Counted from the stretch's first letter, positions 9,073-57,057 are shown. The stretch: DNA of 64,000 nt from an uncultured virus (IMG/VR IMGVR_UViG_3300027884_000001) (IMGVR_UViG_3300027884_000001), one strand, 5' to 3'. The notes: generated by a model not told the origin, from the letters alone. Numbers and translations: made by a program.

Positions 9073-9861
9073 TCACTGAGACTGAATTGCGGATCTCTCG
9101 CCAGGTTCAGGAAAATTCACACATGCGAACTCGCCGAACGCTTCACGTGCAGCCGCGTCGTAGGCTAAGGCCGCCTTTTCTGGTGTCGCGAAGCAACCGA
9201 GGTGCCTGTTTCTTCCAGAAACACGAATCGTCGCCTGCCACGGTCTCGGCCCAGGCGTCGGCCCCTTGTGCACGCCCTTGAACACAGACGTTCTCGCGCT
9301 TCTCTTCTTGCGAGCGTTCCAAACGTTCTGCGCCTGCGTCGCGACCCGCAGGTTTTGTCGCCGGTTGTCGGAAGTGTTCCCATTACGATGGTCGACCTTC
9401 ACGACAGGATCCGTGACTCCCATCACGAACCTGTGCAGCTGACGCGGGGAACCGTCACGACGGTAGTGTGACGGGGCACGATCCGGTACGTGTGTCCATG
9501 GTCGTGACGCTACGACCTCGAAGAGGTCTGCGTCGACGAGTGCGAACTGTCCGCGCGTCAGGGGAAGCCACCGCGCTCCGTCGACGGGCGGAGGCTCTGG
9601 CACGTTCCAACGATGTACCAATGCGTCGTTCGAGCACTTGCGTGAACAAAACGCTCGTTTTGCCGCGCCAGGTTTCGACGAATCGATCGCTTTGCCGCAT
9701 GCGCGACAGCTACCAACGCGACGCGCTTGCTGCGTCTGCCGGTAGTCGTACCAACATCGTGGCCGGCAGAACCGGCCCGTGGTCATCGGCTTCTTCCGAA
9801 ACTTGCCGCCGCATTGCACGCAGACGAGGAGCGGTCTGGCGTCAGCGAACGTCTGGTACAT
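9073..9861 (-). CDS. HNH homing endonuclease with C-terminal AP2 domain and N-terminal Cys-rich zinc ribbons
   Basis: 'VDHRNGNTSDNRRQNLRVAT..QN' (HNH_3); 'S.FKGV...WQATIRV.GRNRHLG.F.TPEKAALAYD.AA' (AP2); CxxC...FC..C repeats. Confidence 0.9.
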   Translation of the reverse strand: MYQTFADARPLLVCVQCGGKFRKKPMTTGRFCRPRCWYDYRQTQQARRVGSCRACGKAIDSSKPGAAKRAFCSRKCSNDALVHRWNVPEPPPVDGARWLPLTRGQFALVDADLFEVVASRPWTHVPDRAPSHYRRDGSPRQLHRFVMGVTDPVVKVDHRNGNTSDNRRQNLRVATQAQNVWNARKKRSARTSVFKGVHKGPTPGPRPWQATIRVSGRNRHLGCFATPEKAALAYDAAAREAFGEFACVNFPEPGERSAIQSQ

Positions 9862-17130: not shown

Positions 17131-17216
17131 TGTTTGCCACGTACTTCGACGCTCTACCGAGCGCAAGTCTTGGAGCGAACCACGACCGACACGATCTTCT
17201 TCGGGATGACGTAGCG

Positions 17217-18116
17217 CTACCGGCTCACGTACTGCGGGCAGGACAGGCAGTGCGGGTGCGAAGAGCGCCCGCCGTTCTTACTGAGCGCGCGAACGAAGGC
17301 TCGGTGCCGATCCGACTGCCAGAGCTTGTCGAGCGACGTGTCGTGGACGCTGCCGAGATCAAAGTGACCGACCACGTCCTGGCAGCACATGAGCATGTCG
17401 CCGCGATGGTTGATGATCGCGCGGACGGTGGGCTCGTGGCACGGCTGCGACGCGTACTGCGCCGCCAGCTCGGTCACCGGATGCGTCGGACTGAAGTGCG
17501 ACGCCACATGCGTCATGTGCATGATGTTGAGCTGCGTCCTGCGGAACAGTGTTCGCAGCCAAGCTCCGCGTTGCTCCCGATCCTCGGGCCCTACCCAGGG
17601 GCCGGACAGCTTCTTGTACGGGTACTGAGAGCTTGGGTAGAGCGCGATGTCCAGTCCGTCGAACTTGCCATCCAGCTCGGCGGCGAGTTGCGGCGTCATG
17701 AGATCGGCGTTGGTGGCGGCCCAGATGCGCGTGAACCCCAAAGACCTCGCCAGCACCGCGATGTGCGGCAGACGCTTGTCTTCGAGCGGCTCGTTGTAGT
17801 GCTGTAGCCCCACGAAGCGGCAGCCCATGGCGTGCGCCTGACTCATGACGCGGTAGAGCGCGTCGAGCGACAGTTCGTGCTCCTCAAACCAGGACTGGAC
17901 AGCTTTGCGATCCGGATGCGAGTTACGAATGCAAGCCGCGCATCGACGGTTGCATGTCGAGTGCGTCTCGATCTCGAGCATGCCGAACATCGGGATCGGC
18001 TCGAGGACGTCGGACTCTCGGATCTTGGGCGTCGGGACGTACTCTTTGCTCGACGATGCTCGGACCTTCATGACGGGAAGACGGCGCCCCGCTTGACTCG
18101 TCGAATCGTTGTTCAT
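17217..18116 (-). CDS. Radical SAM protein with SPASM/twitch domain
   Basis: CNRRCAAC (CxxxCxxC), YNEPL, ATNA; C-terminal 'C...I...GD..MCC.D...LGSV...L..LW.S...C..C'. Confidence 0.9.
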   Translation of the reverse strand: MNNDSTSQAGRRLPVMKVRASSSKEYVPTPKIRESDVLEPIPMFGMLEIETHSTCNRRCAACIRNSHPDRKAVQSWFEEHELSLDALYRVMSQAHAMGCRFVGLQHYNEPLEDKRLPHIAVLARSLGFTRIWAATNADLMTPQLAAELDGKFDGLDIALYPSSQYPYKKLSGPWVGPEDREQRGAWLRTLFRRTQLNIMHMTHVASHFSPTHPVTELAAQYASQPCHEPTVRAIINHRGDMLMCCQDVVGHFDLGSVHDTSLDKLWQSDRHRAFVRALSKNGGRSSHPHCLSCPQYVSR

Positions 18117-18127
18117 CTTCCACCTAG

Positions 18128-21100
18128 CTAGAACGTAATGAGTAGTAGCCCGTCGCTACCCTTGCCACCAGCGCCACCCGTGCCGCCCCAACCGCCAGAG
18201 CCGCCGATACCCGCGCCACCGCCACCGCCACCGCCACCACCACCACGGCCTCCGAACCCGGTTGCGCCCGCACTGCCAGGCTGCCCGCTGGCGGTCACGC
18301 CGCCCGTCGCGCCAGCGCCACCTGCGCCACCATTGCCGCCATACCCACCGGAGCCGGTTGTAGAACCGCCCGGTCCATATTCGTCGGCACTGGCCGCGTT
18401 ACCGCCAGCGCCACCGCCACCGCCACCGGCCGCGCCGGTGATCGTGCCGCCGCCGGAGGACGCGCCCGGAGCGCCGCCGGACGGAGGTCCAGACGTCAGA
18501 CCTGCGGTCGTAATTCCAAAAATAGTCAATGCCACAGATGCAGAAGGCGCGCCTCCCACAATGCCTACCTTGCCAGTGCCACCGCCCGCACCGCCCGCAC
18601 CGCCGGTGATGATGCCGTTGCTGATAAGCACCGGAACCCAGAATGACGGATACGGCCAGCCACCGGTCGTGCCTACCGCGCCACCGGCACCTGCCGAGCC
18701 AGTTGCTCCTGAACCGTTACCTCCGCCGAAACCACCTTGTGCGGTCGTGGTTTGATTTTCATTCGCCTGACCGAACACGATGAGAGCTGTTGTACCGCCG
18801 GAAGTTGCACCGAATGCCGTGAGCGCACCATTCGCACCCGTCGATCCAGCGCCACCCTGACCCGCGGCAAGCGAAGCGGTCCCGCCCGCGCCACCCGCGC
18901 CACCCGCGCCACCGGCACCGATCGTCATACCGTATAGCTGATTGAAGTTCAGCCAGAGCGTGACTTCTTGACTGAACGCGGCGCCGCCAGGAAACCCTCC
19001 TCCGCCACCACCACCAGCAATGTTGTTGCCTGGCGTCGCGCCACCCGCGGTTGCGCCGTGACCGCCACCTCCGCCACCTCCGCCACCGGCGCCAGGACGT
19101 CCGAGGATGCGCGCGAGAAATGTTCCGCCCGTAGGTCCTGACGGTGTCCACTGCGTGTACCCCGCCGTCGTGAACAGAACCGCGGTCACCGAGTAGCCGC
19201 CACCAGGACCAGTCGGACCCGTCGGTCCTGTGGGGCCCGTGGGTCCAACCGCCGTGGGACCGGTGGGGCCCGTCGCGCCCGCAGCGCCAGTTGGACCCGT
19301 CGGGCCCGCGGGGCCTGTTGCTCCTGCAGGTCCGGTCGGACCCGTAGCGCCTGCGACACCGGTTGGGCCCGTTGGTCCAGTCGCACCTGCAGCGCCAGTG
19401 GGTCCTGTCGCTCCTTGTGCGCCGGTCGGACCGGTTGCACCTGCAGCGCCCGTAGGGCCGGTTGCGCCTGTCGCTCCTGCCGCGCCACTCGATCCGGTAG
19501 CGCCAGTGGCGCCCGTAGCACCGGTCGCGCCCCGCACGCCACCAGGACTCACCGCGTATGGCTCGCCGATCACTGCTGCGGCAGATGCCTTGAATGCGAC
19601 AAGTTGTGCGAGCCACGTGGCCGACGCGCCCAAGATGGCGCTCGCGTCTGTCGAACCCGTTGTCGCTTGCGTCTGATCTTCGATGGACAGAAGCGCGTTG
19701 AGCGGAGATCGGAACGCGTAACCGCCACCAGGCACGATCGGGATACCCGACGAAGCGACCACTCCGAAGAGCAGATCGCGAGCAACCGTCGTCGTCGTGT
19801 GCCCGCTCGACGCAGTCAGTCCGCCGCCCGTTGTTCCGATCGCGACGTCGACTGGGCTCGCGCTCGTGACGCCTGCGTACTCGGCTGCCTGGATGAACAG
19901 CGTCCCCGACGACGCTCCGGCTGTCGTGACCGTGACGACGTTGCCGCCCGTGGCACCGGTGATGCCTGGCGCGTACCAGACCTGCAAGATCGATCCGCCT
20001 TGCGTCAGCGCGCTCGCGGCTGGCGAGTACGTGTTGCCAGCGCTGTCGGTGACGGTGCCGACGGTCTGGCCGCCGATCACGATCGCGACGGCGATGAGAT
20101 CGCCCGCCGCCTGCGGCTGCGAGAAGATCGCTGAGGCGCCCGTCAGTCCGTTGCCCGAGAGCTGCCCGAAGTTGGTCTGCTGGACGTACTGCGGGCCGCC
20201 GAGCGCGTTTCCTAGATCGCCGGTGTTCTGTAGCCAGACGCCGGTGATGCCGGTCGTGATGCCGGCCACCGTGTAGTAGCCAGCCGTCGGTCCGGTGCCG
20301 CCGCCTGTGGGACCGACGTAGACCGTCTGATCGAGCGCCATCCACGCGTTGTCGACGACGCCGACGAGAACTGTCTGGCCAGGAAGCGGCTGGGTGTACG
20401 TCGTGGTCGTGGTCGTGAAGGCATTGATCCCTGACGCTCCGGTGGGTCCTGTTGGTCCGGTGGCTCCGGCCGGACCCGTTGGTCCCGTAGCGCCCGCAGA
20501 ACCGGTCGGTCCCGTGGGGCCAGTCGCTCCCGCTGCGCCGGTCGGACCCGTGGCACCCGCCGCCCCTGTGGCGCCGGTTGATCCCGTCGCACCCGTGGGT
20601 CCGATGATCCCCGCCGGCACCACGGGGGCCGGACTCAAGATCGTCACGCCTGTCGCTGCATTGCCCGGGTAGCCGCTGTTCTGGAGCCACGCGCCAGTCG
20701 ATCCGGTCGGCAAGAGCACCGAGAAGTAACCGCCGATGGTGCCGCCTGCGGTGCCACCCGGACCAACGAACACCTCTTGCCCAATCGCCATCCAGCTCGC
20801 TTGCGCGAGCGCGACTTGCACCGAGGATCCGCTGGCCGGCATCGTGAAGCCGGCCGTCGTCGTCGTGAACGCGTTGATACCCGATGCGCCCGTGGGGCCT
20901 GTCGGTCCAGTCGCGCCTGTGGCGCCTGCTGCTCCCGTGGCGCCCGTCGCGCCGGTTGGCCCTGTCGGCCCTGTCGGCCCTGTCGGCCCTGTCGGCCCTG
21001 TCGGTCCGGTCGCACCTTGTGCACCGGTCGCTCCCGTCGCTCCCGTTGCTCCCTGCACGCCACCCGGAGTGACAGGTGACGGTTGCAGGATCGTCGCACC

Positions 21101-22831
21101 CGGCGTCGCGTTTCCGATGTCTCCGGTGTTCGTCAGCCACACGCCGGTGATGCCCGTGAACGTGCCGACGGTGTAGTAACCGCCGGCTGTTCCGCCTGCG
21201 GTGGGACCTCCAACGAAGACGGTTTGCTGCGTGGCCATCCACGCGTTGTCGACAACCGCTACGTCGACCGTACCGCCCACCGCCGGCTGAACGAAGTCTG
21301 CCGTCGTCGTGGTGAACGCATTGATTCCTGATGCGCCCGTCGGACCTGTAGGACCCGTCGCGCCCGCAGGACCGGTGGCGCCTGCAGGACCCGTCGGTCC
21401 GGTCGCACCAGCGGGTCCGGTAGCTCCCTGTGCACCCGTCGCGCCGGCTGGACCCGTCGGTCCCGTGGCGCCAGCGCTTCCTGTCGGGCCAGTGGGACCC
21501 GTCGCTCCGGCGGCACCGGTTGCCCCTTGCGCGCCGGTCGCACCCGTTGCCCCCTGGACGCCGCCAGGAGAAACCGGCGACGGTTGCAAGATCGTAGCGC
21601 CCGGCGTTGCGTTGCCAAGATCTCCTGTGTTGGTGAGCCAGACACCTGTGATCCCGGTGAAGGTGCCGACGGTGTAGTAGCCACCCGCGGTGCCGCCCGC
21701 CGTCGGTCCGCCGACGAACACCGTCTGCTGCGTCGCCATCCATGCGTCGTTGACAACAGCGACGAGCACGGTCGCTCCGGCCGCCGGCTGCACGAAGTCT
21801 GCGGTCGTCGTCGTGAACGCGTTGATACCGGACGCTCCGGTAGGTCCTGTCGGCCCGATCGGTCCTGTCGGACCCGTCGCTCCCGCGGGACCCGTGGGCC
21901 CCGTCGCGCCCTGGGCACCTGTGGCACCTGCAGGACCGGTGGCGCCTTGAGCGCCCGTGGCGCCAGCGGGTCCTGTCGCCCCTTGCGCGCCGGTAGCGCC
22001 TTGCGGTCCTGTAGGTCCCTGCGCGCCGGTCGCCCCAGCGGGCCCAGTGGGACCTGTCGCTCCCGCGGCTCCCGTCGCGCCAGCAGTTCCTGTTGCGCCG
22101 GTCGCGCCTTGCACGCCACCCGGCGACACGTCCGACGTCGCGCCGATCGTCGTACCTTGCGGCGCGTTGCCGATGTCGCCGGTGTTCGTGAAGACGCCAC
22201 CGGTCGTGCCGGTGACCGTGTCCGCGACGTAGTAGCCAGCGACCGTGGCGCCCGCCGTCGGTCCCGCGATGAAGACGACCTGCCCGATCGCGATCCATGC
22301 GCTCATCGCCATCGCGATGGCGACGGTTCCTCCAGCAGCCGGAGCTTGGAAGTCGGCGGTCGTGACGGTGAACGCGTTGATACCGCTCGCGCCCGTAGGA
22401 CCCGTCGGCCCTGTCGCGCCGGCCGCACCGGTGGGTCCGGTCGCGCCAGCAGGTCCCGTGGGACCCGCAGACCCTGTTGCACCTGCGGGTCCTGTGGGTC
22501 CGGTTGCGCCTGCGGCGCCAGTTGCACCCGCGGCGCCAGTGGGCCCCGTCGCACCCGCGGGTCCTGTCGCTCCCGCTGGACCGGTGGGTCCTGTCGCGCC
22601 AGCGGGACCTGTCGGACCCGTGGGGCCTGATCCGCTGGGACCCGTCGGGCCAGTCGGACCTGTAGGTCCTGTCGGCCCAGCGCCGCTCGGCCCCGTGGGC
22701 CCTGTCGGACCCGTCGCGCCCGTGGCGCCCGCGCCGCTTGGACCTGTGGGACCCGTCGGGCCCGTAGGACCTGTGGGACCAGTCGGGCCTGTCGGCCCAC
22801 CAGCAGTGCCTCCAAGAAGGATCTCCGCCAC
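18128..22831 (-). CDS. Collagen-like (GPT/GAT repeat) fibre protein, 1567 aa
   Basis: Long (G-P/A-T)n tracts alternate with five homologous modules starting 'GASGINAFT'; the fifth carries an inserted beta-rich domain; Gly-rich C-terminus. Confidence 0.9.
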
Positions 22832-26633: not shown

Positions 26634-29600
26634 GTCTCCATGTTCGATCTCATGGAGCCTGAACGAGCTGCAGCGTCCCAACGCGTCTCCGCTACCTGAG
26701 TCTCCATGCCCGATCTCATGGAGCTTGATCTCAACGCAGCGCCCCAGGCTGACGAGAGCTACCGTTCGATCGCGACGTAGACGTCTCCATGCCCGATCTC
26801 ATGGAGCCTGATCTCGACGACCCCTGGGTACGACCAGGTGAGCGGTGTCCTCTATGTCTCCATGCCCGATCTCATGGAGCTTGATCTCGACGCCCTCCGG
26901 CTGGACCTCCAGCGGCGCGCAGAGCGGTCGTCTCCATGCCCGATCTCATGGAGCTTGATCTCGGATCGATGACGCCTGCTCCTGGCACGAAGTGTCTCCA
27001 TGCTCGATCTCACGGAGCTTGATCTCGACACGTTATGCACTCAGAGGACAAACTCCTCGACGCTTGGTCTCCATGCTCGATCTCATGGAGCCTGATCTCG
27101 ACAGGTCGTGGCGCCGTGGGACCAGATGAATCGGCGTTGTCTCCACGACCGATCTCATGGAGCCTGATTTCGACGTCACTGCTCGATGTGGGTACGGACG
27201 TCGCCATGGTCGTCTCCGTGCCTGGTCTCACGGAGCTTACAGGATCGCGCGGCCGGTGGAGTATGTCTCCATGCCCGATCTCATGGAGCCTGATCTCAAC
27301 GCACGCGCTCGTTCATGCGACACCCCGCAGTCTCCACGTTCGATCTCATGGAGCCTGATCTCGACTCGACCCGGACGAGGTCATCTGAGCCATGAGCACC
27401 ACGTCTCCATGCCCGATCTCATGGAGCTTGATCTCGACTATACGTACGCGGTCGCGGCTGTTCGTCTCCACGCTCGATCTCATGGAGCCTGATCTCGACT
27501 TGCCGCCGCCGTCGTAGGGGCCCTGTGGGATGCTGCGTCTCCATGCCCGATCTCATGGAGCCCGACTTCAACCAGATAGCGTGAACACCAGGACCCCAGA
27601 CACGAAGTGTCTCCATGGCCGATCTCATGGAGCCTGATCTCGACGACGAACGCGACGTGCGCCGCATCGAGTCCGGTGAGTCTCCATGTTCGATCTCATG
27701 GAGCTTGATCTCAACGCACGCGCTCGTTCATGCGACACCCCGCAGTCTCCATGTTCGGATCTCATGGAGCCTGATCTCGACTTGGTCCGACACTGGATCG
27801 ACCACCTGTCTCCATGACTGATCTCATGGAGCTTGACTGCGACACCCCTGGTCGTCTCCATGCTCGATCTCACGGAGCTTGATCTCGACGGCAGAGCCGC
27901 GACACGCACACGCGCGCCCGCACGCTCGTCTCCATGCCCGATCTCATGGAGCCTGATCTCGACAGACCACTGCTGGCCGGCGGTGGTTCGCTCGTATGGT
28001 CTCCATGCCCGATCTCATGGAGCCTGATCTCGACGAGGTAGCCCGTGAAAACGCAGCGTAGGAGGTCTGTCTCCATGCCCGATCTCATGGAGCCTGATCT
28101 CGACCATATGGACCTATTCTACAATGTACCACACTGAGGAGGTCTCCATGCCCGATCTCATGGAGCTTGATCTCGAGGAGCAGAGCGTCGAGGTGACGCA
28201 CAGAGTGGCGGCTGCGTCTCCATGCCCGATCTCATGGAGCTTGATCTCGAGTGGCTGGAGTGGCGGAACGGCAGACGCGGCGGTCTTTAGTCTCCATGCC
28301 CGATTTCATGGAGCCTGATCTCGACCGCGTTCACGCAGTACCTTCGCGTCTCCATGCCCGATCTCATGGAGCCTGATCTCGACGCCTCCGGCGTCAGGCG
28401 CAGCCGCGGCCCGGCGTGATCGTCTCCATGCCCGATCTCATGGAGCCTGATCTCGACCTGGTAGGGCGAGCCTTCGTCGCGGCAGTTGATGCTGTCTCCA
28501 TGCCAGATCTCATGGAGCCTGATCTCGACAGTTCGCGGCCGACGGTCACGAGTCGCCACCCTCCGGGTCTCCATGCCCGATCTCATGGAGCCTGATCTCG
28601 ACGTCCTACCCGCGCCAGCTCGCTGTGGGGCTGATGGTCGTCTCCATGCCCGATTTCATGGAGCCTGATCTCGACCTCCGAGCCATCAGGAACCGGGCCG
28701 ACCTCTCGACGTCTCCATGCCTGATTTCATGGAGCCTGATCTCGACTACTTTGTCGAGGGCGAAAAGGACGTCGACAGCCTGTGGTCTCCATGCCCGATC
28801 TCATGGAGCCTGATCTCGACGCGTCCAGCAAGCGCGCGAGGATCTGAGGACGGACCGGTGCGCCGTCTCCATGCCCGATCTCATGGAGCCTGATCTCGAC
28901 AGGTCGGCAGGAGCGACGGAGGGGAGGGAGGGGTCTGTCTCCATGCCCGATCTCATGGAGCCCGATCTCGACCTGCTCTCGCGCCGATGGTGGGCCACCG
29001 TTACCCCGTCTCCATGCCCGATCTCATGGAGCCCGATCTCGACGGACACGTGGGAGGGCAGCGGCGACACGGTGGAGTTGTCTCCATGCCCGATCTCATG
29101 GAGCCCGATCTCGACATGTTCATGGGGCCTCATGTTCTGCGGTATCCGGTGGTCTCCATGCCCGATCTCATGGAGCCCGATCTCGACCCGGATGTTCTCA
29201 CGCCACACTGGATCTGGCTGCCGTCTCCATGGTCGATCTCATGGAGCCTGATCTCGACGTCCCAAGTTGTCGACGGCCCCAAGCCGAAGGCCCTGTCTCC
29301 ATGGTCGATCTCATGGAGCCTGATCTCGACACAGTAGCCGTCCGGCAGGCTGCGGCAACCTTCACGAGGTCTCCATGGTCGATCTCATGGAGCCTGATCT
29401 CGACCCTGGTCGACGTGCTCGTGGTCGTGGAGGCGCCTTTGTCTCCATGGTCGATCTCATGGAGCCTGATCTCGACGAAGAAACAGGGCCGGCTCACGTG
29501 AGGTAAGGCACGTGTCTCCATGGTCGATCTCATGGAGCCTGATCTCGACTTCTCGCGAACCCGGGTCTCTCTGCCGACCATCACCCTGTCTCCATGGTCG

Positions 29601-30932
29601 ATCTCATGGAGCCTGATCTCGACTATGCGCCTGGTTTGATCGCGCATACGGGATGAACCTGTCTCCATGGTCGATCTCATGGAGCCTGATCTCGACTCGC
29701 GGCGATGACGGTCACCCCCCAGCAGCGTCACAAGTCTCCATGGTCGATCTCATGGAGCCTGATCTCGACTTGGTCCGATGACCAAGCTCACTGGACCGAC
29801 CACTTGTCTCCATGGTCGATCTCATGGAGCCTGATCTCGACGAGGCGCAGGCCGGCGACGACCCGACCTCTCAGGTGGTGTCTCCATGGTCGATCTCATG
29901 GAGCCTGATCTCGACACACGCTCACGGAGTTCGCAGAGCGCATCCGCACGTCGTCTCCATGGTCGATCTCATGGAGCCTGATCTCGACGGAGGCTAGGCT
30001 TTTGGGTCGCGCCCGGTGGTGTCGCGTCTCCATGGTCGATCTCATGGAGCCTGATCTCGACGCGTGCAGTGGTCGGCGCGTCAGTGCCGTCAGTAGCTTG
30101 TCTCCATGGTCGATCTCATGGAGCCTGATCTCGACACGAATCACCGCTGCAGCTGCCGGAGGCCGCGCGGGACGTCTCCATGGTCGATCTCATGGAGCCT
30201 GATCTCGACGCCAGGGATCTGGGGCGCGAGCGACCTCGCTGGGAGTGTCTCCATGGTCGATCTCATGGAGCCTGATCTCGACGAGGATGGCTAGTCGGGG
30301 TGTGATGTGCGCCGCTTGTCTCCATGGTCGATCTCATGGAGCCTGATCTCGACATGCCGCCCGCGGCGGCGTAGCCGTAGCCACAAATGGTCTCCATGGT
30401 CGATCTCATGGAGCCTGATCTCGACGCGGTTCACCCTGAGGAAGACGCGGGCAGTCTCGCTGTCTCCATGGTCGATCTCATGGAGCCTGATCTCGACACC
30501 TTGCTTGAGCGCCGCATGACGCCTGAGGAGTTGGTCTCCATGGTCGATCTCATGGAGCCTGATCTCGACGCCGTAGGGGTGGGGGTCGGGCGCGTCGACT
30601 AGTGTGCGTCTCCATGGTCGATCTCATGGAGCCTGATCTCGACGTCGACCGCCCGGTCGGCTACGTCATTGCTCGCTGAGTCTCCATGGTCGATCTCATG
30701 GAGCCCGATCTCGACGTCGATCGCGCCCCACGCGCTGCGCGCTCGCCTGCGTGTCTCCATGCCCGATCTCATGGAGCCCGATCTCGACCCAGCATGCCGG
30801 CGTGTTCCTCACCGAGCTTCATGAGTCTCCATGCCCGATCTCATGGAGCCCGATCTCGACCATCGAGGACCTGAAAGCCGGGTACTGGTCGGTTTTGTCT
30901 CCATGGTCGATCTCATGGAGCCTGATCTCGAC
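26634..30932 (-). CRISPR. CRISPR array, about 61 repeats of 36 bp and about 60 spacers (mostly 34-38 bp)
   Basis: Plus-strand repeat GTCTCCATG(CC/GT)CGATCTCATGGAGCC(T/C)GATCTCGAC, counted by hand. Minus-strand form GTCGAGATCAGGCTCCATGAGATCGACCATGGAGAC has a 7-bp CTCCATG/CATGGAG hairpin near its 3' end. Repeats decay toward 26634 (trailer). Confidence 0.98.
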
Positions 30933-30951: not shown

Positions 30952-32838
30952 TCATTCTGCGCCATCAGCGTCCGCTTCGCGAGCGGTTGCCATTCGCGCC
31001 ACCTTTTCCGCTCGAAGTCGCGCCACTTTTGCCCATCGCCCTTCCTTCTTCTCTCCGTTTTCGTTCGTTTTCTCTTGCTCGCGAGCACTCACCACGATTT
31101 TTGCATCGCCAGGGCGCTCGCGCCACCGAGCCAGCAGCACCAGCGGGGCGCCGTCGACGTCCTGATCCCATCTTGCGCCACATTCGCACTCCAACCGCAC
31201 AGCAGCAGCCGCGTCACGCGATTCGACCAGACCACACGTCGGGCACGTTCGTGTTGTGTCTGCGCACGGTACCGCGAACAACGCGGCGCGCCTGCTACGT
31301 GCTGCCGTTTCCATGCACGAAACAAGTTCGCTGGTCGATGCCAGCACTCGATTGGCGCGAGCCGTCTCGTTTTCGGTCGTCGCATCACGCGAGGTCGCCG
31401 CGACACGTCGCTTGTCGAAGTTCTCGATCACGATCGTGTCGTACTTGGTCGCTAGCTGCGCTGCCCACACCCGGTATTTCTCACGACGCCTGCGAAGCGC
31501 TTGCCCGCGAGCGCAGCTCTCGACGGCCCAATCGTGTCTCGCTCTGAACGCCCAGTTGGTCAACGCATCGTACGCTGCCTCGTCATCGGCAAAACGTGCG
31601 TCCATCCAACGGTTGCGTAGCGCCACCATTCTCGCTTCCGCCTTCCACGCGTGCACGTTCGCGCTGATCACGCGAAGCCAGTCGGGGAGGATCTCCCGGT
31701 GATCGCGCAGCCAGACGCTGAGCGCGAGGCGTGCCGCGTCGAAACGCAGGTCGCGAGCCGATCGCATCGCCTCCGGCGCTCGCAATACAGCCAGATCCTT
31801 CGCCGACAGGCGCAGCTCGCCTCGGTCTCCGGTGTCGTCCTGCCATCCGGCCACACGAAGCTCGTCGCCCATGACACGCCAGCCAACATCGACCGCGATT
31901 GTACCAGTGCCAGCCGTCGATGCTCGCGTCGATGCAGGCACGTCGAGCGTGAACGTCACGTGCCATCGGTCGTACGGACCGACGCGTTTCCGGTGTACGG
32001 TCGCGAGCTGAATCGTGGATCCGACGGGCAGCGGCCTGTGCATGTCCATGCGCCACGAACCCCAGACAGGGTCCCGACCGTTGCTGCCGATCCGGATCGA
32101 CAGCTGTGCCTGACGCGCCATGTTTTCGCATTCGCGATGTGTACGTCCGCTACGGTCCCACGCGCGTTCATCCGGAAGCACGATACGCAACCGCGAATCG
32201 TTACCGGAGGCGGCACGCTCGACAGTCAGAGACTTCGTAGCCTTGTCGGCGGTCGCCGTCTGGATCTGGACACCGACCGAACCTTCGCCAGTCCAACGCG
32301 CCCACGCCGGATCGTTCGCGTGACCGTCTTTGTTATAAAGACTCGTGTCGCTGAACGAGTCGCTCACCGCCCCCTCGACCAGTAGGTAGCTGCCCCAGTA
32401 CACGCCACAGTTTGCCCGAGCGCTACGCTGCAACTCCTTGGCGCGCTCACCAATCGCGTCACGCGCGGCGATCATGGCCGGACTGTCCTTGATTTTTAGC
32501 CGTAGCTCGCGGAACGCTTTGGCGGCGTCGCGTTCCGCTACTCGCGCCGCCCGAAGCGTGTCGCGCATCTCTTGCGGTTCGTCACGTTTACGGCTGCGCG
32601 CCCGATGTCGCTTGATTGCGCCATCAGCAAGCTCTCTGGCTCCTATAGCCATGGTGAGGGCTCGCTGTGCAGCCGGCATGTCGCCGGCTTCCGCTTCCAC
32701 CAAACGTACAGCCGCCCGACGACCTCGTTCGATCTCTACGAGCGTGTTGCGGTACCGATGAGCGGCCCGCATCTGTAGATCGATGAGATCAAAGTTTTCA
32801 TGTGGCGAAGCGAGTGCGTATTTGTAGACGAGCTTCAT
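30952..32838 (-). CDS. cas12m: Compact type V CRISPR effector, Cas12m (V-U1/C2c4)-like, 628 aa
   Basis: ATG 32838 with AAGGAG RBS. 'Q...AH.YRN.LVEIE', long Arg/Ala coiled coil, 'YWGSY', 'W.GEGSVGVQIQ', 'MHRPLP', RuvC-I 'IAVDVGWR', RuvC-II 'IVIENFD', Zn finger 'TRTCPTCG...CECG', RuvC-III 'WDQD'. Collinear with MmCas12m as recalled; abuts the array. Confidence 0.85.
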   Translation of the reverse strand: MKLVYKYALASPHENFDLIDLQMRAAHRYRNTLVEIERGRRAAVRLVEAEAGDMPAAQRALTMAIGARELADGAIKRHRARSRKRDEPQEMRDTLRAARVAERDAAKAFRELRLKIKDSPAMIAARDAIGERAKELQRSARANCGVYWGSYLLVEGAVSDSFSDTSLYNKDGHANDPAWARWTGEGSVGVQIQTATADKATKSLTVERAASGNDSRLRIVLPDERAWDRSGRTHRECENMARQAQLSIRIGSNGRDPVWGSWRMDMHRPLPVGSTIQLATVHRKRVGPYDRWHVTFTLDVPASTRASTAGTGTIAVDVGWRVMGDELRVAGWQDDTGDRGELRLSAKDLAVLRAPEAMRSARDLRFDAARLALSVWLRDHREILPDWLRVISANVHAWKAEARMVALRNRWMDARFADDEAAYDALTNWAFRARHDWAVESCARGQALRRRREKYRVWAAQLATKYDTIVIENFDKRRVAATSRDATTENETARANRVLASTSELVSCMETAARSRRAALFAVPCADTTRTCPTCGLVESRDAAAAVRLECECGARWDQDVDGAPLVLLARWRERPGDAKIVVSAREQEKTNENGEKKEGRWAKVARLRAEKVARMATAREADADGAE

Positions 32839-32866
32839 GGTGACGATCTCCTTGTTGCGCTTGTCG

Positions 32867-33547
32867 CTACCGTATCGATCGCTCGGCCGTCTCCGGCAGC
32901 AACGTGTTGCAACGGATGCACCGATCGACCACATACTTATTTGTCTCGCCACATGCACACCGACGAAACTCTGGTTCATGCGGCATCGCTCTCTCATTGA
33001 GCGCGTCAAGTTCTTGCTGGTCAACAGGACAGTGAGGCCGAAACCGAAACGTCTTGAGTCTCTCCGCAGCGCTCTGTTCGTTACGCACTTCCTCACGTTC
33101 GATCGCGTACCGCCCTAGCCTGGTAACTCTCGAACGCAAAACTTTAGCCGCACTCGTCAAGACGCGATCCTTATCGCCGATCCGTTCGCAAATCGACGCC
33201 GCCTTTTCAAGCTCAAAATCCTCGGCGACTTCTTCGTCACTCGGCATCGGTTCGTACCGTTCAATCCAGTGCCGCATTTCCATAAGCACAAGCTCCGCAC
33301 ATGTGTTCGCTAACGTCGCCACACCGAACGGCTCTACAGTGGTAGCTTGCACACGACAGTCTTCGCGTTGGCAACCAACCACGAACGTTTTGCCGCCGTC
33401 ACATAGTCCGACTTGATACATGCCACATCCGTGTATTGGGCATCGGCAGTCGCGCAGCCGAGCGACAGGATCCATTTCGTCTAGCCACGCGCGGAACTGT
33501 TCCGCTGTCCAACGATCGAGGTCGACGACATTGTCGCCCGTCTTCAT
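32867..33547 (-). CDS. Cys-rich (putative Zn-binding) protein immediately upstream of the cas gene
   Basis: CxCxxHxC...C..C cluster at the N-terminus and CxC...CxxC at the C-terminus; stop 28 nt before the cas start. Confidence 0.55.
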   Translation of the reverse strand: MKTGDNVVDLDRWTAEQFRAWLDEMDPVARLRDCRCPIHGCGMYQVGLCDGGKTFVVGCQREDCRVQATTVEPFGVATLANTCAELVLMEMRHWIERYEPMPSDEEVAEDFELEKAASICERIGDKDRVLTSAAKVLRSRVTRLGRYAIEREEVRNEQSAAERLKTFRFRPHCPVDQQELDALNERAMPHEPEFRRCACGETNKYVVDRCIRCNTLLPETAERSIR

Positions 33548-37483: not shown

Positions 37484-38413
37484 TCATGCTTGCGTCCCTC
37501 GATGCGTGTGGATGTCGGCTTCGCCTGGCACGAGCTTTCTGTACTGAACCCAACCGTTATAGTTGCCGAGGAAGTGCGTCTCGCGACCCGAGATCGTCAG
37601 CCATCCTCCGACTCCCGCGTCCCAGACTCGATGCGGCTGCTCGAACATCAGCAGCTCCGACAACGTCATCGGACGAGCCGGATGCTCGAGAGGGCTCATG
37701 TGACCCGACTCCAGTAGCGAGTCGTGGAGCCTGAGGTCCTCAACCGGATCGCGCTTGCCGTCGTGTGTGAGGTACGACACGCGAGCGCACCGGCCGGCCG
37801 AGACCTTCACCCAGTCGATCGACGCCTCGACCATCTCAGCCTCGGTCACCAGCGGCAAGTGCCACTGCTTCGACGACAGATCCAGCGGCTTGCTCGCCAA
37901 GTGCAGCTGGTGCATCAAGTCGGCGGCCTTGTGGATCTCCGGCTGCGCCTTCTTGTTGTCGCGCAGGTTGAAAAAATTGCCCCACTCAGTCGCGGAAACA
38001 ATGACCGTGTGCCAGAGCCACGGTTCGAGTAGCCGGTTGGGGATCTGCTTGTGAACGTCGAGACCGCCTTGTTCTTCTGGGACGGCGAGAAAGTGGGCGG
38101 TGTTGATGGCGTGGTTGCGTAGTTCGCGCCACGCGAAGTCCGCCCGAGCAAGATCTTCATCTTCAAGCACCTCGCTGGAGGCCTGCATGCCTTTTTGGTT
38201 CTTGCCCCACACGGCCGGCACGAACGGGTTCTCGCGTACGCGTTCGAGCATCTTCTTGACCGGGATCGCGCGACTCGAGGCGCTGTTGCGCGAGAAGACG
38301 CGATGCGTGTTGAACTCAGCGAGCACGATGCGAGGGAATGTGACCTCGAACGTCGTCAGCCGGTGACCGATCGGCGAGACCGAGTCCGCGAGAATCTTGG
38401 CGTCGTACCCCAT
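37484..38413 (-). CDS. thyX: FAD-dependent thymidylate synthase
   Basis: 'AEFNTHRVFSRNSASSRAIP', 'HKQ..NRLLEP', 'AQPEI', 'H.SP.EH.A' of the phage-type ThyX. Confidence 0.85.
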   Translation of the reverse strand: MGYDAKILADSVSPIGHRLTTFEVTFPRIVLAEFNTHRVFSRNSASSRAIPVKKMLERVRENPFVPAVWGKNQKGMQASSEVLEDEDLARADFAWRELRNHAINTAHFLAVPEEQGGLDVHKQIPNRLLEPWLWHTVIVSATEWGNFFNLRDNKKAQPEIHKAADLMHQLHLASKPLDLSSKQWHLPLVTEAEMVEASIDWVKVSAGRCARVSYLTHDGKRDPVEDLRLHDSLLESGHMSPLEHPARPMTLSELLMFEQPHRVWDAGVGGWLTISGRETHFLGNYNGWVQYRKLVPGEADIHTHRGTQA

Positions 38414-38479: not shown

Positions 38480-40018
38480 CTACTCGTCGCCGTCTTTGTA
38501 CTCGTCGTCATAGTCCTTGAGCGTATCGATGTACCTGCCGCGCTCGAACTCGAGCAACGTGATGCTCGTCTCGTCGAGGCGACCCTTGGCCAGCGCGAAC
38601 GCTGTCGGTTTGCCCTTGATGAAGATGCCGCTCATCGGATCGCGCGGCCGGTGCATGATGAAGATCTGGTCGGCGTCCTGCTCCAGCGAGCCGCTCTCGC
38701 GAAGGTGGTGAAGTTTCGGCATCGCATCCGCGTTCTTCTGCCGCTCGGCATCACGATGGATCTGCGCGAGCGCCATCACGTGACATCCGAGCTTCGTCGC
38801 GATGACACGCAACCCTCGACTCGTCTCGGCGACCTGCTGTTCACGCGTGCCCTTCTTGAGCAGCTCCGCGCTCGGCTTCACCAGACCGATGTGGTCGATG
38901 ACGACGAGTGTCAGCTTCTTGCCGGCGCGATCAAGAATCCGAGCACGATCGGTCGCCGCCGAAAGCACGCTGACGAGCGTCTGCTCTAGGCTCACCGTGA
39001 ACCACAGCTCCAGGTCCTTGACTGACTTCACGGACGCGGTGAGGTCTCGCCACTGATCCGTGTTGAGAACTTTCCTGCGGATCGCTGCCACAGACACGCC
39101 TGGCGTGCGTGCGGCCAGAAGCTTCGTCGTGAACGACTTGTGCGGCATCTCCATCGTGACGTACAGCGCGCCTACCTTCGGATCGCTAGCGACCATGTGC
39201 TCTGCGATCTGCACCGCGATCGTGCTCTTGCCGACGTTCGTCCTGGCGGCCAGGATGCTTGTTTCTGGTGCGCGCAGACCGCCGTTGATCATCTCGTCGA
39301 TGTTGTTGAGCCCCGTCGGAACCGCTGCACCTGTCGGCGCCATCAGGTCGGTGAAGAACTGTTCGGCCGACTGCTTGAGACTGATCGTGGAAGCGATTGC
39401 ACTTGATCGCTCCATGATGTCCGCGGATGCTTTTTCGGCGAGCCTGTAGATCTCGATGTCGCTGATCCTCGGATCGAGCGCGCTTTCGACAACTCGGCGG
39501 AGGCCGCGGATCGCCTCGCGCTTCGTCCATGCCGACTTGATCGACTCAGCGTACGCACGCGCCTGAACTTCGCTCACGGTCGACGCTGAAGATTGAAGCT
39601 TTTCCAGTGCGCCGATGCCGGTCCTGTCGCTACTGTAGCCAAGCTTGGCGGCATGCGACGCCACTTGGACGGGATCGTGTTCCACAGGAGTGTGTCCCGT
39701 CTCCTCGATCTTCGCGAGGCACGCGAGCATGGCTTCGTAGATCTCGCCGTGAGCCGTCTCGTAGAATGGTTTGCGGTCCGGCAAGATGTCCTGCACTGCG
39801 CTCGCTCGGAGCACGTCCGGAGCGTTCGATGCAGACCACAGGAACGCCGCCAGCAAAGCTTTCTCGGCAGCTACCTCAGCTGGTTCGCCGATCTTGCGCA
39901 TCCTCGCGTCGACCACATGAAGCTCGACACGCTTCGTTCCTTCGGCGAGGTTCGGCGAGAGCTTGCCCGCAGCGAGCAGCTCGTTTTCGTCAGGGACCCT
40001 CGGTCTGTCGTTGCTCAC
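38480..40018 (-). CDS. dnaB: DnaB-like replicative helicase
   Basis: Walker A 'AARTNVGKS', 'TMEM', 'VVIDHIGL', 'LAQIHR', 'LRESGSLEQDAD'; GTG start overlaps the primase stop. Confidence 0.92.
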   Translation of the reverse strand: MSNDRPRVPDENELLAAGKLSPNLAEGTKRVELHVVDARMRKIGEPAEVAAEKALLAAFLWSASNAPDVLRASAVQDILPDRKPFYETAHGEIYEAMLACLAKIEETGHTPVEHDPVQVASHAAKLGYSSDRTGIGALEKLQSSASTVSEVQARAYAESIKSAWTKREAIRGLRRVVESALDPRISDIEIYRLAEKASADIMERSSAIASTISLKQSAEQFFTDLMAPTGAAVPTGLNNIDEMINGGLRAPETSILAARTNVGKSTIAVQIAEHMVASDPKVGALYVTMEMPHKSFTTKLLAARTPGVSVAAIRRKVLNTDQWRDLTASVKSVKDLELWFTVSLEQTLVSVLSAATDRARILDRAGKKLTLVVIDHIGLVKPSAELLKKGTREQQVAETSRGLRVIATKLGCHVMALAQIHRDAERQKNADAMPKLHHLRESGSLEQDADQIFIMHRPRDPMSGIFIKGKPTAFALAKGRLDETSITLLEFERGRYIDTLKDYDDEYKDGDE

Positions 40019-42150
40019 GCTTGCCGCCTCCACAGGAAGGCGCGACGCCGCAAGGTGTTCTCGATCTCCTGCGCGTAACGATTGCCCGCTTCGTCGACGT
40101 CTGTTCGAAGATAGACGCGAGCGCCGAGAGGGACACGCTCGGCGAACGCTTTGGTCCATGACCCGCTGACGATGCCAAACGTAGCGCCATGAGCATCGTT
40201 GGTTACGCTTGCGCGCGACAAGAAGTCAGGTTCACCCTCAACGATACCGATGCGGTACGGCTTGATCTCGCCACGCAGCATCGCGCGTCCGAACGCGTCG
40301 GCCATGACCATCTCGCCCGCCTTGTGCCCGAACGGTGGCTTGCGTTTCGCGCCATCGCCGTCGACGACGCGCCACGCGCGCACCGACCGCATCTCACCGG
40401 TCGCGTCGTACATCCCGACCAGCAACCGGTAGCCGACCTCGCGCCACGTGCCGCCGGTCGCGTACGCCCACCGCGGCAACGCGCCCGACGGCGAAATCGC
40501 GCGCGCGAGATCGCGCGAGTCGATGACGTCCGGATCGAGCGAGCGGCCTCGCAGATAGGCGGCCACAATCGGATCGTCGTACGTCGGCACGCACGACGCC
40601 CACAGCGCGTCGACCTCGTCCTTCGGCGGCCACGCGCGCGGCGGCTCTTCGACCGGTGGCGGCAACGGCGCCGGAGCCGGCGCTGGATGATCGTCGCGCG
40701 GACCGCGCCCTTCGAGCTTGTCGACGAGCTGCCACATGCCGGCCAGGCGCGCGCCCTCGACGAGCACACGCTTGAAGTCGGTGTCGATCTTCAGACCGCG
40801 CACGGCGGCGATGAGCGACAGCACATCGCCCGTCGCTTCGCAGTTGTGCACCGTGAGCGTCGGCGTAGAGAATGTTCCGTCGGACGTTGTGACGTCTACC
40901 ACCTGTTGCTCGCGTTCTTCGGGCGTGACATTGACCAGCTTCGAGCAGAGGGCCCATCTGCCATCGGCCAGACGCACGACAGCCTCGCTCTTGCGCAGCT
41001 GATGTCTAGGTATCCAGCTAGCCCGCGTAGCGCTCTCCACTTGCTCCATCGAGCCAGCCGCGAAGTTGATGCCGTAGATCGGCAACTTGTCTTGCGGGTA
41101 CGATGGTGACCAACGTCTCGGGAACGCGTGACACCGCGCAGCTATCACGAAAGCTGCGTCTACGAGATGGCTGGACGTGACGCTGATGACGTTTCTGGCG
41201 CGACTACCGTCACCGTCTCGTAGGCCAAGAAGCCAGAAAGCTGCTGCTCGCACAGGACCAAGCAACAACTGCGCCGGACACCGCTTGTTTTCCGTTCCAG
41301 AGCCGCAATGCTCCGCGAAGACGTCGGCCGCAACCGCGCTGGAGATGCGAATCTCGGCGCTGTTCTCACGGTCCGGCCACGTCCGTACCGACGCTGTTGC
41401 TCCGAACATGTCGGCCACGCGTCGAAGTCTAGGAAGAAACTTCTCAACCTCGTCGATGTGGATGGAGAACGTAACGCAGCGACCGCCGGCACTTCCTTCC
41501 GCGGCGTACAGTCCAAACGCCCACGCCAGATCCGCTTCGTGACCGTCGACCTCTTGTAGTTCTTTTCTGGCCAGCGGGGACGTTCGACCATGATGCAGAC
41601 GGATTCTCCAGCTGGACACGGTTTGCTCGGGGATACAGAACGGCAACCAGTCCGAAGGCTGTAGCTCGTCGGCGTCGCGCTCCAACAGCTTGCCTGTCCA
41701 GCGCTGTCGCGCCAACGAGTGCGGTGTCACTGGCGCGTCCGTAACGAGCATCCGATGGTTTCCGGTCACGAACACGCCCCGCGTGTCCGACACTGTCTGC
41801 ACACGGAGTACGCGTTCGCGACGGGCTCGATACGTCTTCATGACGACGCTCGTGCCACTCGATCCGAACACCCTATCGCCTTCGACGAGATCTCCGAGTC
41901 GCCGAAACCCTAGCGGAGTCAGAACGCTCGTGGCGACCGGCAAGCACCCCCAACACTTCCAGAGGATCACGCCGCCCTTGTTCTGCACCGAGCAGCTCGG
42001 GCTGCCGTCTTCGTGCACGGGGCAGCGGATCATCCATCCGCCGGCCTGACGCGCTCGCGCCTTGCCCTGACCCATGATGCCGAGCGCCTCGAGCACGCGA
42101 GTCGGATCGCTGAGAGCGCGCTTGATCTCGGCGACGTCCTGGTCAGCCAC
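40015..42150 (-). CDS. DNA primase (CHC2 zinc finger + TOPRIM), intein-interrupted
   Basis: 'CPVHED..PS...WKCWG|C..GD' zinc finger; TOPRIM 'IVEGEPD...TDVDEAG'. Confidence 0.88.
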   Translation of the reverse strand: MADQDVAEIKRALSDPTRVLEALGIMGQGKARARQAGGWMIRCPVHEDGSPSCSVQNKGGVILWKCWGCLPVATSVLTPLGFRRLGDLVEGDRVFGSSGTSVVMKTYRARRERVLRVQTVSDTRGVFVTGNHRMLVTDAPVTPHSLARQRWTGKLLERDADELQPSDWLPFCIPEQTVSSWRIRLHHGRTSPLARKELQEVDGHEADLAWAFGLYAAEGSAGGRCVTFSIHIDEVEKFLPRLRRVADMFGATASVRTWPDRENSAEIRISSAVAADVFAEHCGSGTENKRCPAQLLLGPVRAAAFWLLGLRDGDGSRARNVISVTSSHLVDAAFVIAARCHAFPRRWSPSYPQDKLPIYGINFAAGSMEQVESATRASWIPRHQLRKSEAVVRLADGRWALCSKLVNVTPEEREQQVVDVTTSDGTFSTPTLTVHNCEATGDVLSLIAAVRGLKIDTDFKRVLVEGARLAGMWQLVDKLEGRGPRDDHPAPAPAPLPPPVEEPPRAWPPKDEVDALWASCVPTYDDPIVAAYLRGRSLDPDVIDSRDLARAISPSGALPRWAYATGGTWREVGYRLLVGMYDATGEMRSVRAWRVVDGDGAKRKPPFGHKAGEMVMADAFGRAMLRGEIKPYRIGIVEGEPDFLSRASVTNDAHGATFGIVSGSWTKAFAERVPLGARVYLRTDVDEAGNRYAQEIENTLRRRAFLWRRQA
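40843..41946 (-). mobile_element. Intein (368 aa) with LAGLIDADG homing endonuclease
   Basis: Block A 'CLPVATSVLT', block B 'VTGNHRM', endonuclease motifs 'FGLYAAEGS' and 'LGLRDGDGS', terminal 'VVDVT...VHN|C'. Confidence 0.93.
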
Positions 42151-44006: not shown

Positions 44007-44558
44007 TCACTTGTCGAACTGCTTCCATGCGCGCGACGCGACCGGACCGCGCGACGTGTCGCCCTTGTAGTTGCCGTCGTAGAGCTGCGGCGGCACGCCG
44101 TCGATGGTGTGGAAGCGCATCTGCGCGATGCGCATGCCGGCATAGATGCGGATGGGGTACGTGCTGGTAACTTCGAGCGTGTAGTTCCCGAAAAATCCAG
44201 GATCTCCATACCCGGCCGTGCTGTGAACCTGCAGGAACAGCCGACCGATCGAGCTTTTGCCGTCGATCACGGGCACGAACTTCTTCGTGCCGATCCGCTC
44301 GGCGGTGTGCATCAGGTAGCCGACGCCGGGACGCAGCACGATCCCTTCCGGCTGGATGTAGATCTTCGTGGTGGTCGGCTCGTTCCTGACGTCGTGCACG
44401 CTGTGCGGACCGAGAAAGTTGTAGGTCAAGGCTTCGTTGCCGAGCCGCAGATCGTAGCTCGCCGGGTTGAGCTGCTTCGGGTCGTACGGCTCGATCTCGA
44501 TGTCGCCGTCGACGACCGCGTCGTGAATCGATCGTCCGCTCAGGATGCCGCCGGTCAC
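44007..44558 (-). CDS. dcd: dCTP deaminase
   Basis: 'QLNPASYDLRLG', 'DGKSSIGRL', 'TAGYGDPGF.G..TLE', 'GMRIAQ'; GTG start at 44558. Confidence 0.92.
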   Translation of the reverse strand: MTGGILSGRSIHDAVVDGDIEIEPYDPKQLNPASYDLRLGNEALTYNFLGPHSVHDVRNEPTTTKIYIQPEGIVLRPGVGYLMHTAERIGTKKFVPVIDGKSSIGRLFLQVHSTAGYGDPGFFGNYTLEVTSTYPIRIYAGMRIAQMRFHTIDGVPPQLYDGNYKGDTSRGPVASRAWKQFDK

Positions 44559-44946
44559 TTGAGCACCCCGTGACCCGCGAGGCTCAGGCATGTGTTGCAG
44601 TACGTCAGGTCCGTCGGCGGGATCGCGCTCGTGCGCGTCGCCACCGTGCACTCGCGGCCGCAGAGGGTCGAGAGCTTCTTGACGGTCTTGATGTTGCGCT
44701 CCTTGTCGCAACGCACCAGGCACGGCCGCGTGTCCTCGGTGACGCTGCCGTCGTCCTCGACGACGTCGAAGTACACGACGCGCAGCGGCGGTCCGCCGAG
44801 CACGACCCTCGTGAGATCGACGGGCGCAAGCGCCTCGTCGTCGAACAACTTGCCCGTGCGGTCGGCGGCTTCGGTCATCGTGATGCAAACGACAGCTAAC
44901 AAGAACGATTGACGGACGCAAGCGCTCGCGCTACCCGTACCCCTCG

Positions 44947-56627: not shown

Positions 56628-57056
56628 ATGACGATGCCGATCCCGTTCGTACAAGGCAGCGATACCAGCGAAGAGGCTGCGCAGAGCAAGCAGCCGACTG
56701 CGTCGAGTGATGAAGGTAAGGTCCTCGGGCTGCTGTGGAAGTATGGAACGTCTGGAGCGACCGACGACGAGATCGAGATCGCGCTCAACATGCGTCACCA
56801 GAACGCCAGCGCGCGGCGCAACACGCTCGTGCGAAAGGGTCTCGTCTGCAACAGCGGTCAGACGCGCAAGACGCGCAGCGGACGTAGGGCGGCCGTCTGG
56901 GTGGTGGGTTCCGGAGGCAACCCGCTCCTCGGTGCGTCCAACGACAGAGCGAAGAGACCGAACCGAACCGAGATGCGCGCGGCGGCGGACCTGCTCGAGA
57001 CGCAGCCTGGCATGGCCACGGTGGTCGTGTGGCTGCGGTGGCTGGCGAGGCACTGA
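56628..57056 (+). CDS. Winged-helix DNA-binding protein
   Basis: 'GATDDEI...L....QNASARR..LV..GLV..SG..R.TRSGR.A.VW'; GAGGAG RBS. Confidence 0.7.
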   Translation: MTMPIPFVQGSDTSEEAAQSKQPTASSDEGKVLGLLWKYGTSGATDDEIEIALNMRHQNASARRNTLVRKGLVCNSGQTRKTRSGRRAAVWVVGSGGNPLLGASNDRAKRPNRTEMRAAADLLETQPGMATVVVWLRWLARH

Positions 57057-57057
57057 G

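Follow-up and report, generated by a model that had tools for sequence, protein, structure and literature searches.

Cas12m, formerly named Cas12u1, is the effector of the type V-M (previously V-U1) CRISPR systems. Type V-M loci have repeat arrays, which are short, and no other cas genes (Altae-Tran 2023). According to a 2024 review, plasmids are enriched for them and some prophages carry them as well (PMC11656645). Here we analyze a cas12m gene found in a 64,000-nucleotide stretch of DNA from an uncultured virus (IMGVR_UViG_3300027884_000001). This 64-kb stretch, which we call the window, is the scope of every absence that we state for the locus; the 628-residue product of the gene, read from the ATG at 32838, is called P0001. 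A first-pass annotation of the window had described a Cas12m-like effector with a canonical Asp-Glu-Asp (D-E-D) RuvC triad, and had proposed that it might be an unusual, nuclease-active member of a clade known for binding-only silencing. The effector and its canonical triad are there, but the exceptional status is not supported. We consider it probable that the locus is a phage-borne (or prophage-borne) type V-M system, in which an RNA-guided DNA binder silences its targets without making a double-strand break.

The division of Cas12m into clades reportedly goes back to Wu 2022, which Omura 2023 cites for it. Four clades are distinguished by their triads: clade 1 with HEK or HQK, clade 2 with HDD, clade 3 with DED or NED and clade 4 with DED, DND or NED, and the last two were suggested as possible DNA hydrolysers (Omura 2023, PMC10442227). 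MmCas12m2 has the non-canonical triad H317, D485 and D579, and according to the same paper conversion of its HDD to DED did not restore cleavage, a result given there as 'data not shown' (PMC10442227). Bigelyte 2024 lists 134 Cas12m variants and reports on eight orthologues: four D-E-D, two H-D-D and two N-D-D. None of the eight is reported to cleave double-stranded DNA (dsDNA), and six bound DNA in a manner that depended on the protospacer-adjacent motif (PAM). For the D-E-D protein MsCas12m, which was purified, the paper reports neither cleavage of target DNA or RNA nor collateral activity (PMC11013384). Cas12m proteins with a D-E-D triad are on record, and the ones put to the test did not cleave DNA. 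The core idea of the first-pass annotation was in print before, together with a negative result for the other D-E-D orthologues tested. Our literature search found no report of a cutting Cas12m, and no paper for the PDB entries 23vw and 23vu, for 'UnCas12m4a' or for Cas12m3/4.

The Effector Gene and Its Family

The features of the locus on which our argument rests are the following.

30952..32838, minus strand: cas12m gene, type V-M / V-U1 effector, 628 amino acids (aa) plus stop
32848..32851, minus strand: ribosome-binding site GGAG, 9 nucleotides (nt) before ATG 32838, read from the sequence
32413..32793, minus strand: long helical REC region (residues 16-142), made up of four long helices by DSSP on the predicted model
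31876..31899, minus strand: RuvC-I motif IAVDVGWR, D317 at 31888-31890
31414..31437, minus strand: RuvC-II motif TIVIENFD, E472 at 31423-31425
31180..31245, minus strand: zinc finger C532-x2-C535 ... C551-x-C553 (TNB/ZnF domain), CPTC at residues 532-535 and CEC at 551-553
31159..31170, minus strand: RuvC-III motif WDQD, D560 at 31159-31161
26634..30932, minus strand: CRISPR array, 59 repeats and 58 spacers, from a fuzzy repeat scan and TRF

The longest open reading frame (ORF) at the site is 30952-33096 on the minus strand, and the start at 32838 within it is supported by the GGAG upstream and by homologues, which open at the same VY(K/R)Y motif. The ORF upstream of cas12m ends at a TAG at 32869-32867. 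A promoter and terminator scan gave a site count no higher than in shuffled sequence.

Judged by its sequence and predicted fold, P0001 is a Cas12m, the effector of a type V-M system. It matches the PADLOC Cas12u1 model with an E-value of 6.1e-80 over profile positions 4-532 of 533. When P0001 alone is compared with the PDB sequences (phmmer), the matches are 23vw (8e-49), GoCas12m 8pm4 (4.9e-21), MmCas12m2 8hio and 8hhl (about 4e-19) and 23vu (8e-13). The entry title of 23vw is 'CRISPR-associated DNA-binding protein Cas12m' and that of 23vu 'UnCas12m4a'. A profile from an alignment of 77 sequences (A1) raises these matches to 1.7e-136 for 23vw, 7e-76 for 8hio, 1.3e-70 for 8pm4 and 1.2e-50 for 23vu. 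The best PDB chain for this profile that is not a Cas12m is a TnpB-like protein at 2e-10. Foldseek matches the predicted model to 8hhl (E 6e-30, TM 0.78/0.82). The homology runs over the full length of the protein, and the fold is that of Cas12m, with WED, a long helical REC1/REC2, RuvC and a zinc finger in about 600 aa. Within the window we also find an adjoining array whose repeat would form the handle of a CRISPR RNA (crRNA), no cas1, cas2 or cas4 among the 62 ORFs scanned, and no trans-activating crRNA (tracrRNA). The assignment to Cas12m-like effectors in the first-pass annotation is borne out by these matches.

A D-E-D Triad at the Catalytic Positions

D317, E472, D560 and the Cys4 zinc finger lie where the first-pass annotation had put them, as confirmed by translation and by a scripted check. 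The check places D317 in TIAVDVGWR (bases 31890-31888), E472 in TIVIENFD (31425-31423) and D560 in WDQD (31161-31159); the annotated interval, 31159..31890, spans exactly D560 to D317. The phmmer alignment sets D317 opposite the H of the Mm motif tvalHlgwr; E472 falls on the first D of hvlvDD, and D560 on the second D of yDqD. Counted along the alignment, these partners are Mm residues 317, 485 and 579. Hence, D317, E472 and D560 are the true catalytic positions, and the worry attached to the first-pass annotation, that these residues might not be the catalytic ones, falls away. What it gave for MmCas12m, an H-D-D triad in ALHLGWR, VLVDD and YDQD, agrees with the alignment and with the triad given by Omura 2023. 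In the same columns GoCas12m has H/D/D, and 23vw has D/E/D (aiDlgwr, tivlEe, wdqD). The motif match is not due to chance, because G319, W320, R321, C535, C551, C553, D558 and D560 are invariant in A1; E472 and C532 are conserved to at least 90%.

The long helical REC region consists of helices 16-51, 54-82, 89-117 and 120-142. Within it, R113 is conserved to at least 90% in A1, and R110 pairs with Mm R112 in the phmmer alignment to PDB chains. Mm R112 is described as one residue of an Arg-rich pocket for the non-target strand (Omura 2023, PMC10442227).

MmCas12m2 (8HHL/8HHM/8HIO) and GoCas12m (8PM4) share with P0001 the motifs GWR and WDQD, a zinc finger and the long helical REC, and their 36-nt repeats carry a stem or pseudoknot near the 3' end, as the repeat of the window does. 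They differ from P0001 in the triad, where D317 stands against H317 (Mm) or H322 (Go) and E472 against D485 (Mm) or D497 (Go). The identity to these H-D-D structures is 21-24% (21-22% by Foldseek), and Mm and Go are bacterial or plasmid-borne, whereas P0001 is phage-borne. Because its residues are D317, E472 and D560 and not the His-Asp-Asp of clade 2, we group P0001 with the D-E-D clades and not with the clade of Mm and Go. With the D-E-D Cas12m proteins (clades 3/4; 23vw and the four D-E-D orthologues of Bigelyte 2024, such as MsCas12m) it shares full-length homology, the same D/E/D in the same motifs and a similar size. The arrangement is the same too: a single effector beside an array, while other cas genes and a tracrRNA-like anti-repeat are missing. 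It is only distantly related to them in sequence, however, and it sits in a phage genome.

The D-E-D State among Relatives

The triad of P0001 is the common one among its relatives. Our closest set holds 121 sequences: the query, a copy of it in the database (P0002) and the 119 matches that rank next. D-E-D is found in 99 of these and N-E-D in 10, and the rest are N-x-D, H-E-D or truncated. D-E-D is also present in 97 of 114 further representatives (clusters at 50% identity) and at 35 of the 56 viral loci from IMG/VR described below, among which D-N-D, D-K-D and D-D-D forms occur as well. Within the 121 closest proteins, the second position departs from E only if the first is already N.

A FastTree phylogeny of 166 sequences, built without P0002, without exact duplicates and without viral translations of less than 450 aa, contains 126 D-E-D sequences, 37 with another triad and three with a gap at a triad position. 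Under parsimony and midpoint rooting the root state is D-E-D and 20 changes are needed. The query is nested in a subclade that is entirely D-E-D, together with P0003-P0010 (52-67% identity). We infer from this tree that the branch started out with D-E-D, which most of its members have, and that the triad is neither regained nor exceptional. P0001 would not be the unusual member of a binding-only clade that the first-pass annotation took it for; the D-E-D clades are, moreover, in print.

Outside D317 and E472, only W332 and G340 lose at least 0.3 in conservation in members without D-E-D. Since the triad was apparently lost about 20 times and little other conservation was lost with it, the main function of these proteins, RNA-guided binding, seems to survive without catalysis.

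The Array and Its Repeat

The array opens 19 nt past the stop codon of cas12m. It consists of 59 repeats of 36 nt (26634-30932) and 58 spacers, mostly of 35-38 nt, and is far longer than the arrays of 3-21 repeats at 40 of the viral loci described below; V-M arrays are described as short (Altae-Tran 2023). All 21 exact copies of the commonest repeat lie in the gene-side half (29223-30932), and the copies decay toward 26634. Because exact repeats gather near the gene and degenerate copies at the far end, the leader lies at the gene side, and gene and array would be read jointly from the minus strand. There are two variants of the repeat, which occur in blocks and differ at repeat positions 10-11 (read on the plus strand): the GG/TC form occupies 29223-30715 and 30897-30932, and the GC/CC form most of 26700-29187 as well as 30753-30860. 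We read the variable positions as falling in unpaired bases. Part of the old end of the array has been duplicated, since the 29-nt spacer at 27301-27329 recurs within a 92-nt gap at 27716-27807.

The minus-strand repeat folds into a 7-bp stem (-10.4 kcal/mol) that ends 2 nt before the 3' end of the repeat. A two-helix pseudoknot, supported by covariation, recurs in the repeats of 17 loci, where 81.5% of the pseudoknot cells pair, compared with 68.1% in shuffled repeats and 28-46% when the partner is slid. By our own reading, the helices of the window's repeat are one base out of register relative to the other loci. The crRNA handle of MmCas12m2, which Omura 2023 describes as a pseudoknot plus a stem (PMC10442227), resembles the handle of the window's repeat. 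There is no anti-repeat in the window; the best repeat-like match outside the array has 12 nt. A 25-nt core of the repeat, taken as an exact string, had no match among viral, genome and metagenome contigs.

Relatives and Viral Spread

With the profile, the family numbers 9,279 representatives when the cut-off is set at E<=1e-3; at E<=1e-30 it still has 3,213 clusters (50% identity). In IMG/VR, 56 viral loci encode relatives; they were found by an alignment-based search, where a search with the single protein alone returned nothing. In genome contigs, a search with one peptide pattern only gave four loci from metagenome-assembled genomes, a number that is uninformative on the frequency in bacteria. 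A repeat array is present at 40 of the 56 viral loci, mostly just downstream of the gene. These 40 arrays hold 3-21 repeats, counted by exact 14-mers, so that degenerate copies are missed, and the 59 repeats of our locus are the most that we have seen. Cas1 is absent from all five large viral records that we searched for it, three of which carry terminal repeats in direct orientation and have a completeness rating of 100%.

One homologue lies in a 197-kb Caudoviricetes genome in GenBank, Virus Rctr197k (KX853510), at 112351-114219. It is 32% identical to P0001 over 599 aligned columns and keeps D/E/D. An annotated CRISPR of 1,515 bp (110803-112317) lies 34 nt downstream of this gene and is shorter than the array of the window. 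A preprint of September 2026 on the myxophage MV-1 calls MvCas12m the first phage Cas12m (bioRxiv 10.64898/2026.09.14.751636). The KX853510 locus and the 56 IMG/VR loci argue that it is not the first. As described in the preprint, MvCas12m resembles P0001 in being phage-encoded, in its D-E-D triad (D305/E463/D555), and in having an adjacent array, no cas1/2/4 and no spacer targets found. By the same description it has 610 aa and eight spacers, compared with 628 aa and 58 spacers here.

The viral contig IMGVR_UViG_3300032770_000005 (152,857 bp) carries two Cas12m-like D-E-D genes (L008 and L028) about 50 kb apart, one with a six-repeat array and the other with none detected. In P0040 (954 aa) an N-terminal extension of roughly 300-470 residues with PF16003 is fused to a Cas12m body, and the A1 profile matches residues 471-954.

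Silencing or Cutting

How would such a system work? The action by binding only, the processing of the crRNAs and the nature of the targets are inferred here from homology to the Cas12m proteins studied so far. The system would be made up of one 628-aa effector gene and, directly behind it, the 58-spacer array that belongs to it; adaptation genes are absent from the neighborhood. Transcription of the array, on the minus strand, would accompany that of cas12m or come just after it, and Cas12m would trim the transcript into crRNAs, each with a pseudoknotted repeat handle and about 17-20 nt of spacer. The complex would then find matching dsDNA flanked by a PAM, form a stable R-loop and stay bound, and so block transcription or replication of the target. 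The targets are probably rival phages or plasmids, possibly host genes. As for the D-E-D site, its most likely role is to hold Mg2+ together with the displaced non-target strand, like the H-D-D site of MmCas12m2, or else to serve another activity.

We favor silencing by binding because four D-E-D Cas12m proteins gave no dsDNA cleavage and Ms showed neither cis nor trans cleavage, and because the H-D-D to D-E-D conversion in Mm produced no cutting. Among solved structures the closest relative is 23vw, which also has D-E-D in the alignment and was deposited under the name of a DNA-binding protein.

Several observations weigh against this explanation. D-E-D is kept in about 80% of the family at a mean column identity of 36%, and D560 is near-invariant. 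Retention so far above the level of drift argues for purifying selection on the site, and a pure roadblock would have no obvious need of a site that is kept in this way. The published assays are also narrow, as far as the paper describes them: one D-E-D orthologue was purified (Ms, from Meiothermus) and was assayed at 37 C on 5'-labelled oligoduplexes, and the other three D-E-D proteins were assayed only by an adapter ligation that detects double-strand ends (PMC11013384). The relatives tested by experiment share no more than about 30% identity with P0001. Finally, no protospacer was found for the 58 spacers, so the searches yielded neither targets nor a PAM. The best E-value was 0.1 against GenBank phages and again 0.1 against plasmids, and matches to 60 fetched loci were of 15-19 nt only, which is chance level. 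Exact 24-mers of the two newest spacers had no match in IMG/VR.

Some of these observations would be expected if the D-E-D site were catalytically live, nicking the non-target strand or slowly cleaving the target, perhaps only at the native temperature, with Mn2+, on a supercoiled substrate or with a host factor. D-E-D Cas12m proteins would then be true nucleases and the H-D-D clade a derived dead form. We think this unlikely, although it is the strongest of the alternatives. Neither the zinc finger nor any of the three catalytic residues, all at the expected positions, is damaged, the triad is kept by most relatives in all three sets (99/121, 97/114 and 35/56), and the departure from E only after N in the 121 closest proteins looks like coupled decay. 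The published assays would have missed nicking in three of the four D-E-D proteins, and Omura 2023 raised the same possibility. Against it stand the four D-E-D orthologues, all four without dsDNA cleavage, Ms without target or collateral cleavage, and the Mm protein in which a restored D-E-D did not restore cutting. The roughly 20 independent losses of the triad, with a drop of at least 0.3 otherwise at W332 and G340 only, also speak against a live site, as does the absence of any cutting Cas12m in our literature search. Nor is the coupling of the first two positions strict, as the viral D-N-D, D-K-D and D-D-D forms demonstrate. A shade more doubtful still is the broader claim that the large, mostly phage-borne D-E-D branch keeps its triad for catalysis, as a nickase or as a slow or conditional nuclease missed by the published assays. 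If it were true, binding-only silencing would be a derived state, reached about 20 separate times, and nature would have supplied, in P0001 and its 58 natural guides, a compact cutter or nickase.

It is much less probable that P0001 binds without cutting as a programmable repressor, resembling TldR, of host genes (for defence or metabolism) or of the phage's own genes. The locus is phage-encoded, none of its 58 spacers matched known phages or plasmids, neither of the two newest had an exact match in IMG/VR, and phage CRISPR systems can target host defences, according to reviews (PMC11656645). However, the window contains no self-target (the longest exact match is 17 nt), and 58 diverse spacers with a degenerate old end resemble an immune memory that keeps growing more than they do a fixed regulon. 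Unmatched spacers are, besides, normal for environmental sequences.

That P0001 is a TnpB-like transposon nuclease beside unrelated repeats has practically no chance of being true and is effectively refuted: the general libraries do return only such domains (in NCBIfam guided_TnpB, E 1.9e-6; in Pfam Cas12f1-like_TNB, E 8e-6, residues 504-564), and GenBank labels the Rctr197k homologue 'similar to transposase', but the guided_TnpB score is 27.4 bits against a cut-off of 100, the full-length Cas12m matches are 60-120 orders of magnitude better than those to TnpB, Pfam finds no transposase (TnpA or Y1) among the 62 scanned ORFs of the window, an array stands in the place of an omega-RNA, 40 of the 56 viral relatives have a repeat array too, and the repeats of 17 loci covary as a crRNA handle. 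TnpB and Cas12f also differ from P0001 in having no long helical REC insertion, in working with an omega-RNA or a tracrRNA, and in cutting DNA.

Phage Surroundings

The window is phage DNA, and its cas12m is phage-borne or prophage-borne. We scanned 62-63 ORFs with PHROGs and Pfam, chosen by a filter on GC at the third codon position and by eye from 292 ORFs of at least 90 aa. The following neighbors were recognized with these libraries.

9076-9861: HNH endonuclease
18131-22831: collagen-like tail fibre, 1,567 aa
25922-26476: M23 endolysin
37487-38413, minus strand: ThyX
38483-40159: DnaB
40018-42150: primase
44010-44921, minus strand: dCTP deaminase
56707-58020: YqaJ/RecE exonuclease

Pfam found no Cas1, Cas2 or Cas4 among the 62 scanned ORFs. 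The replication block includes both ThyX and the dCTP-deaminase-like gene, a pairing that may indicate an altered nucleotide metabolism or DNA base content. A 1,478-aa ORF at 12733-18116 (minus strand) combines Methyltransf_24 (residues 925-1052) with a glycosyltransferase-like C-terminus. Directly beside it is a radical-SAM/SPASM protein (17220-18116), and together they may form a phage modification module. By far the strongest family match in the window belongs to the ORF at 62178-62906 (plus strand), which matches DUF7873 from end to end (E 2.9e-102).

Implications

The triad observation itself changes little, because D-E-D Cas12m is already described and does not cut where it has been tested. 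P0001 is best seen as a new phage-borne member of a known D-E-D branch of Cas12m, notable chiefly for its very long array and for its large, phage-associated and little-described family. The family to which it belongs is much larger and more associated with phages than the literature suggests (3,213 clusters and 56 IMG/VR loci, compared with 134 variants). The array has 58 spacers and a decayed old end, yet we see no adaptation genes in the phage, and one may ask what machinery loads the spacers. And the triad is strongly retained, yet was lost about 20 times; the D-E-D site may have a role that the published assays do not explain.

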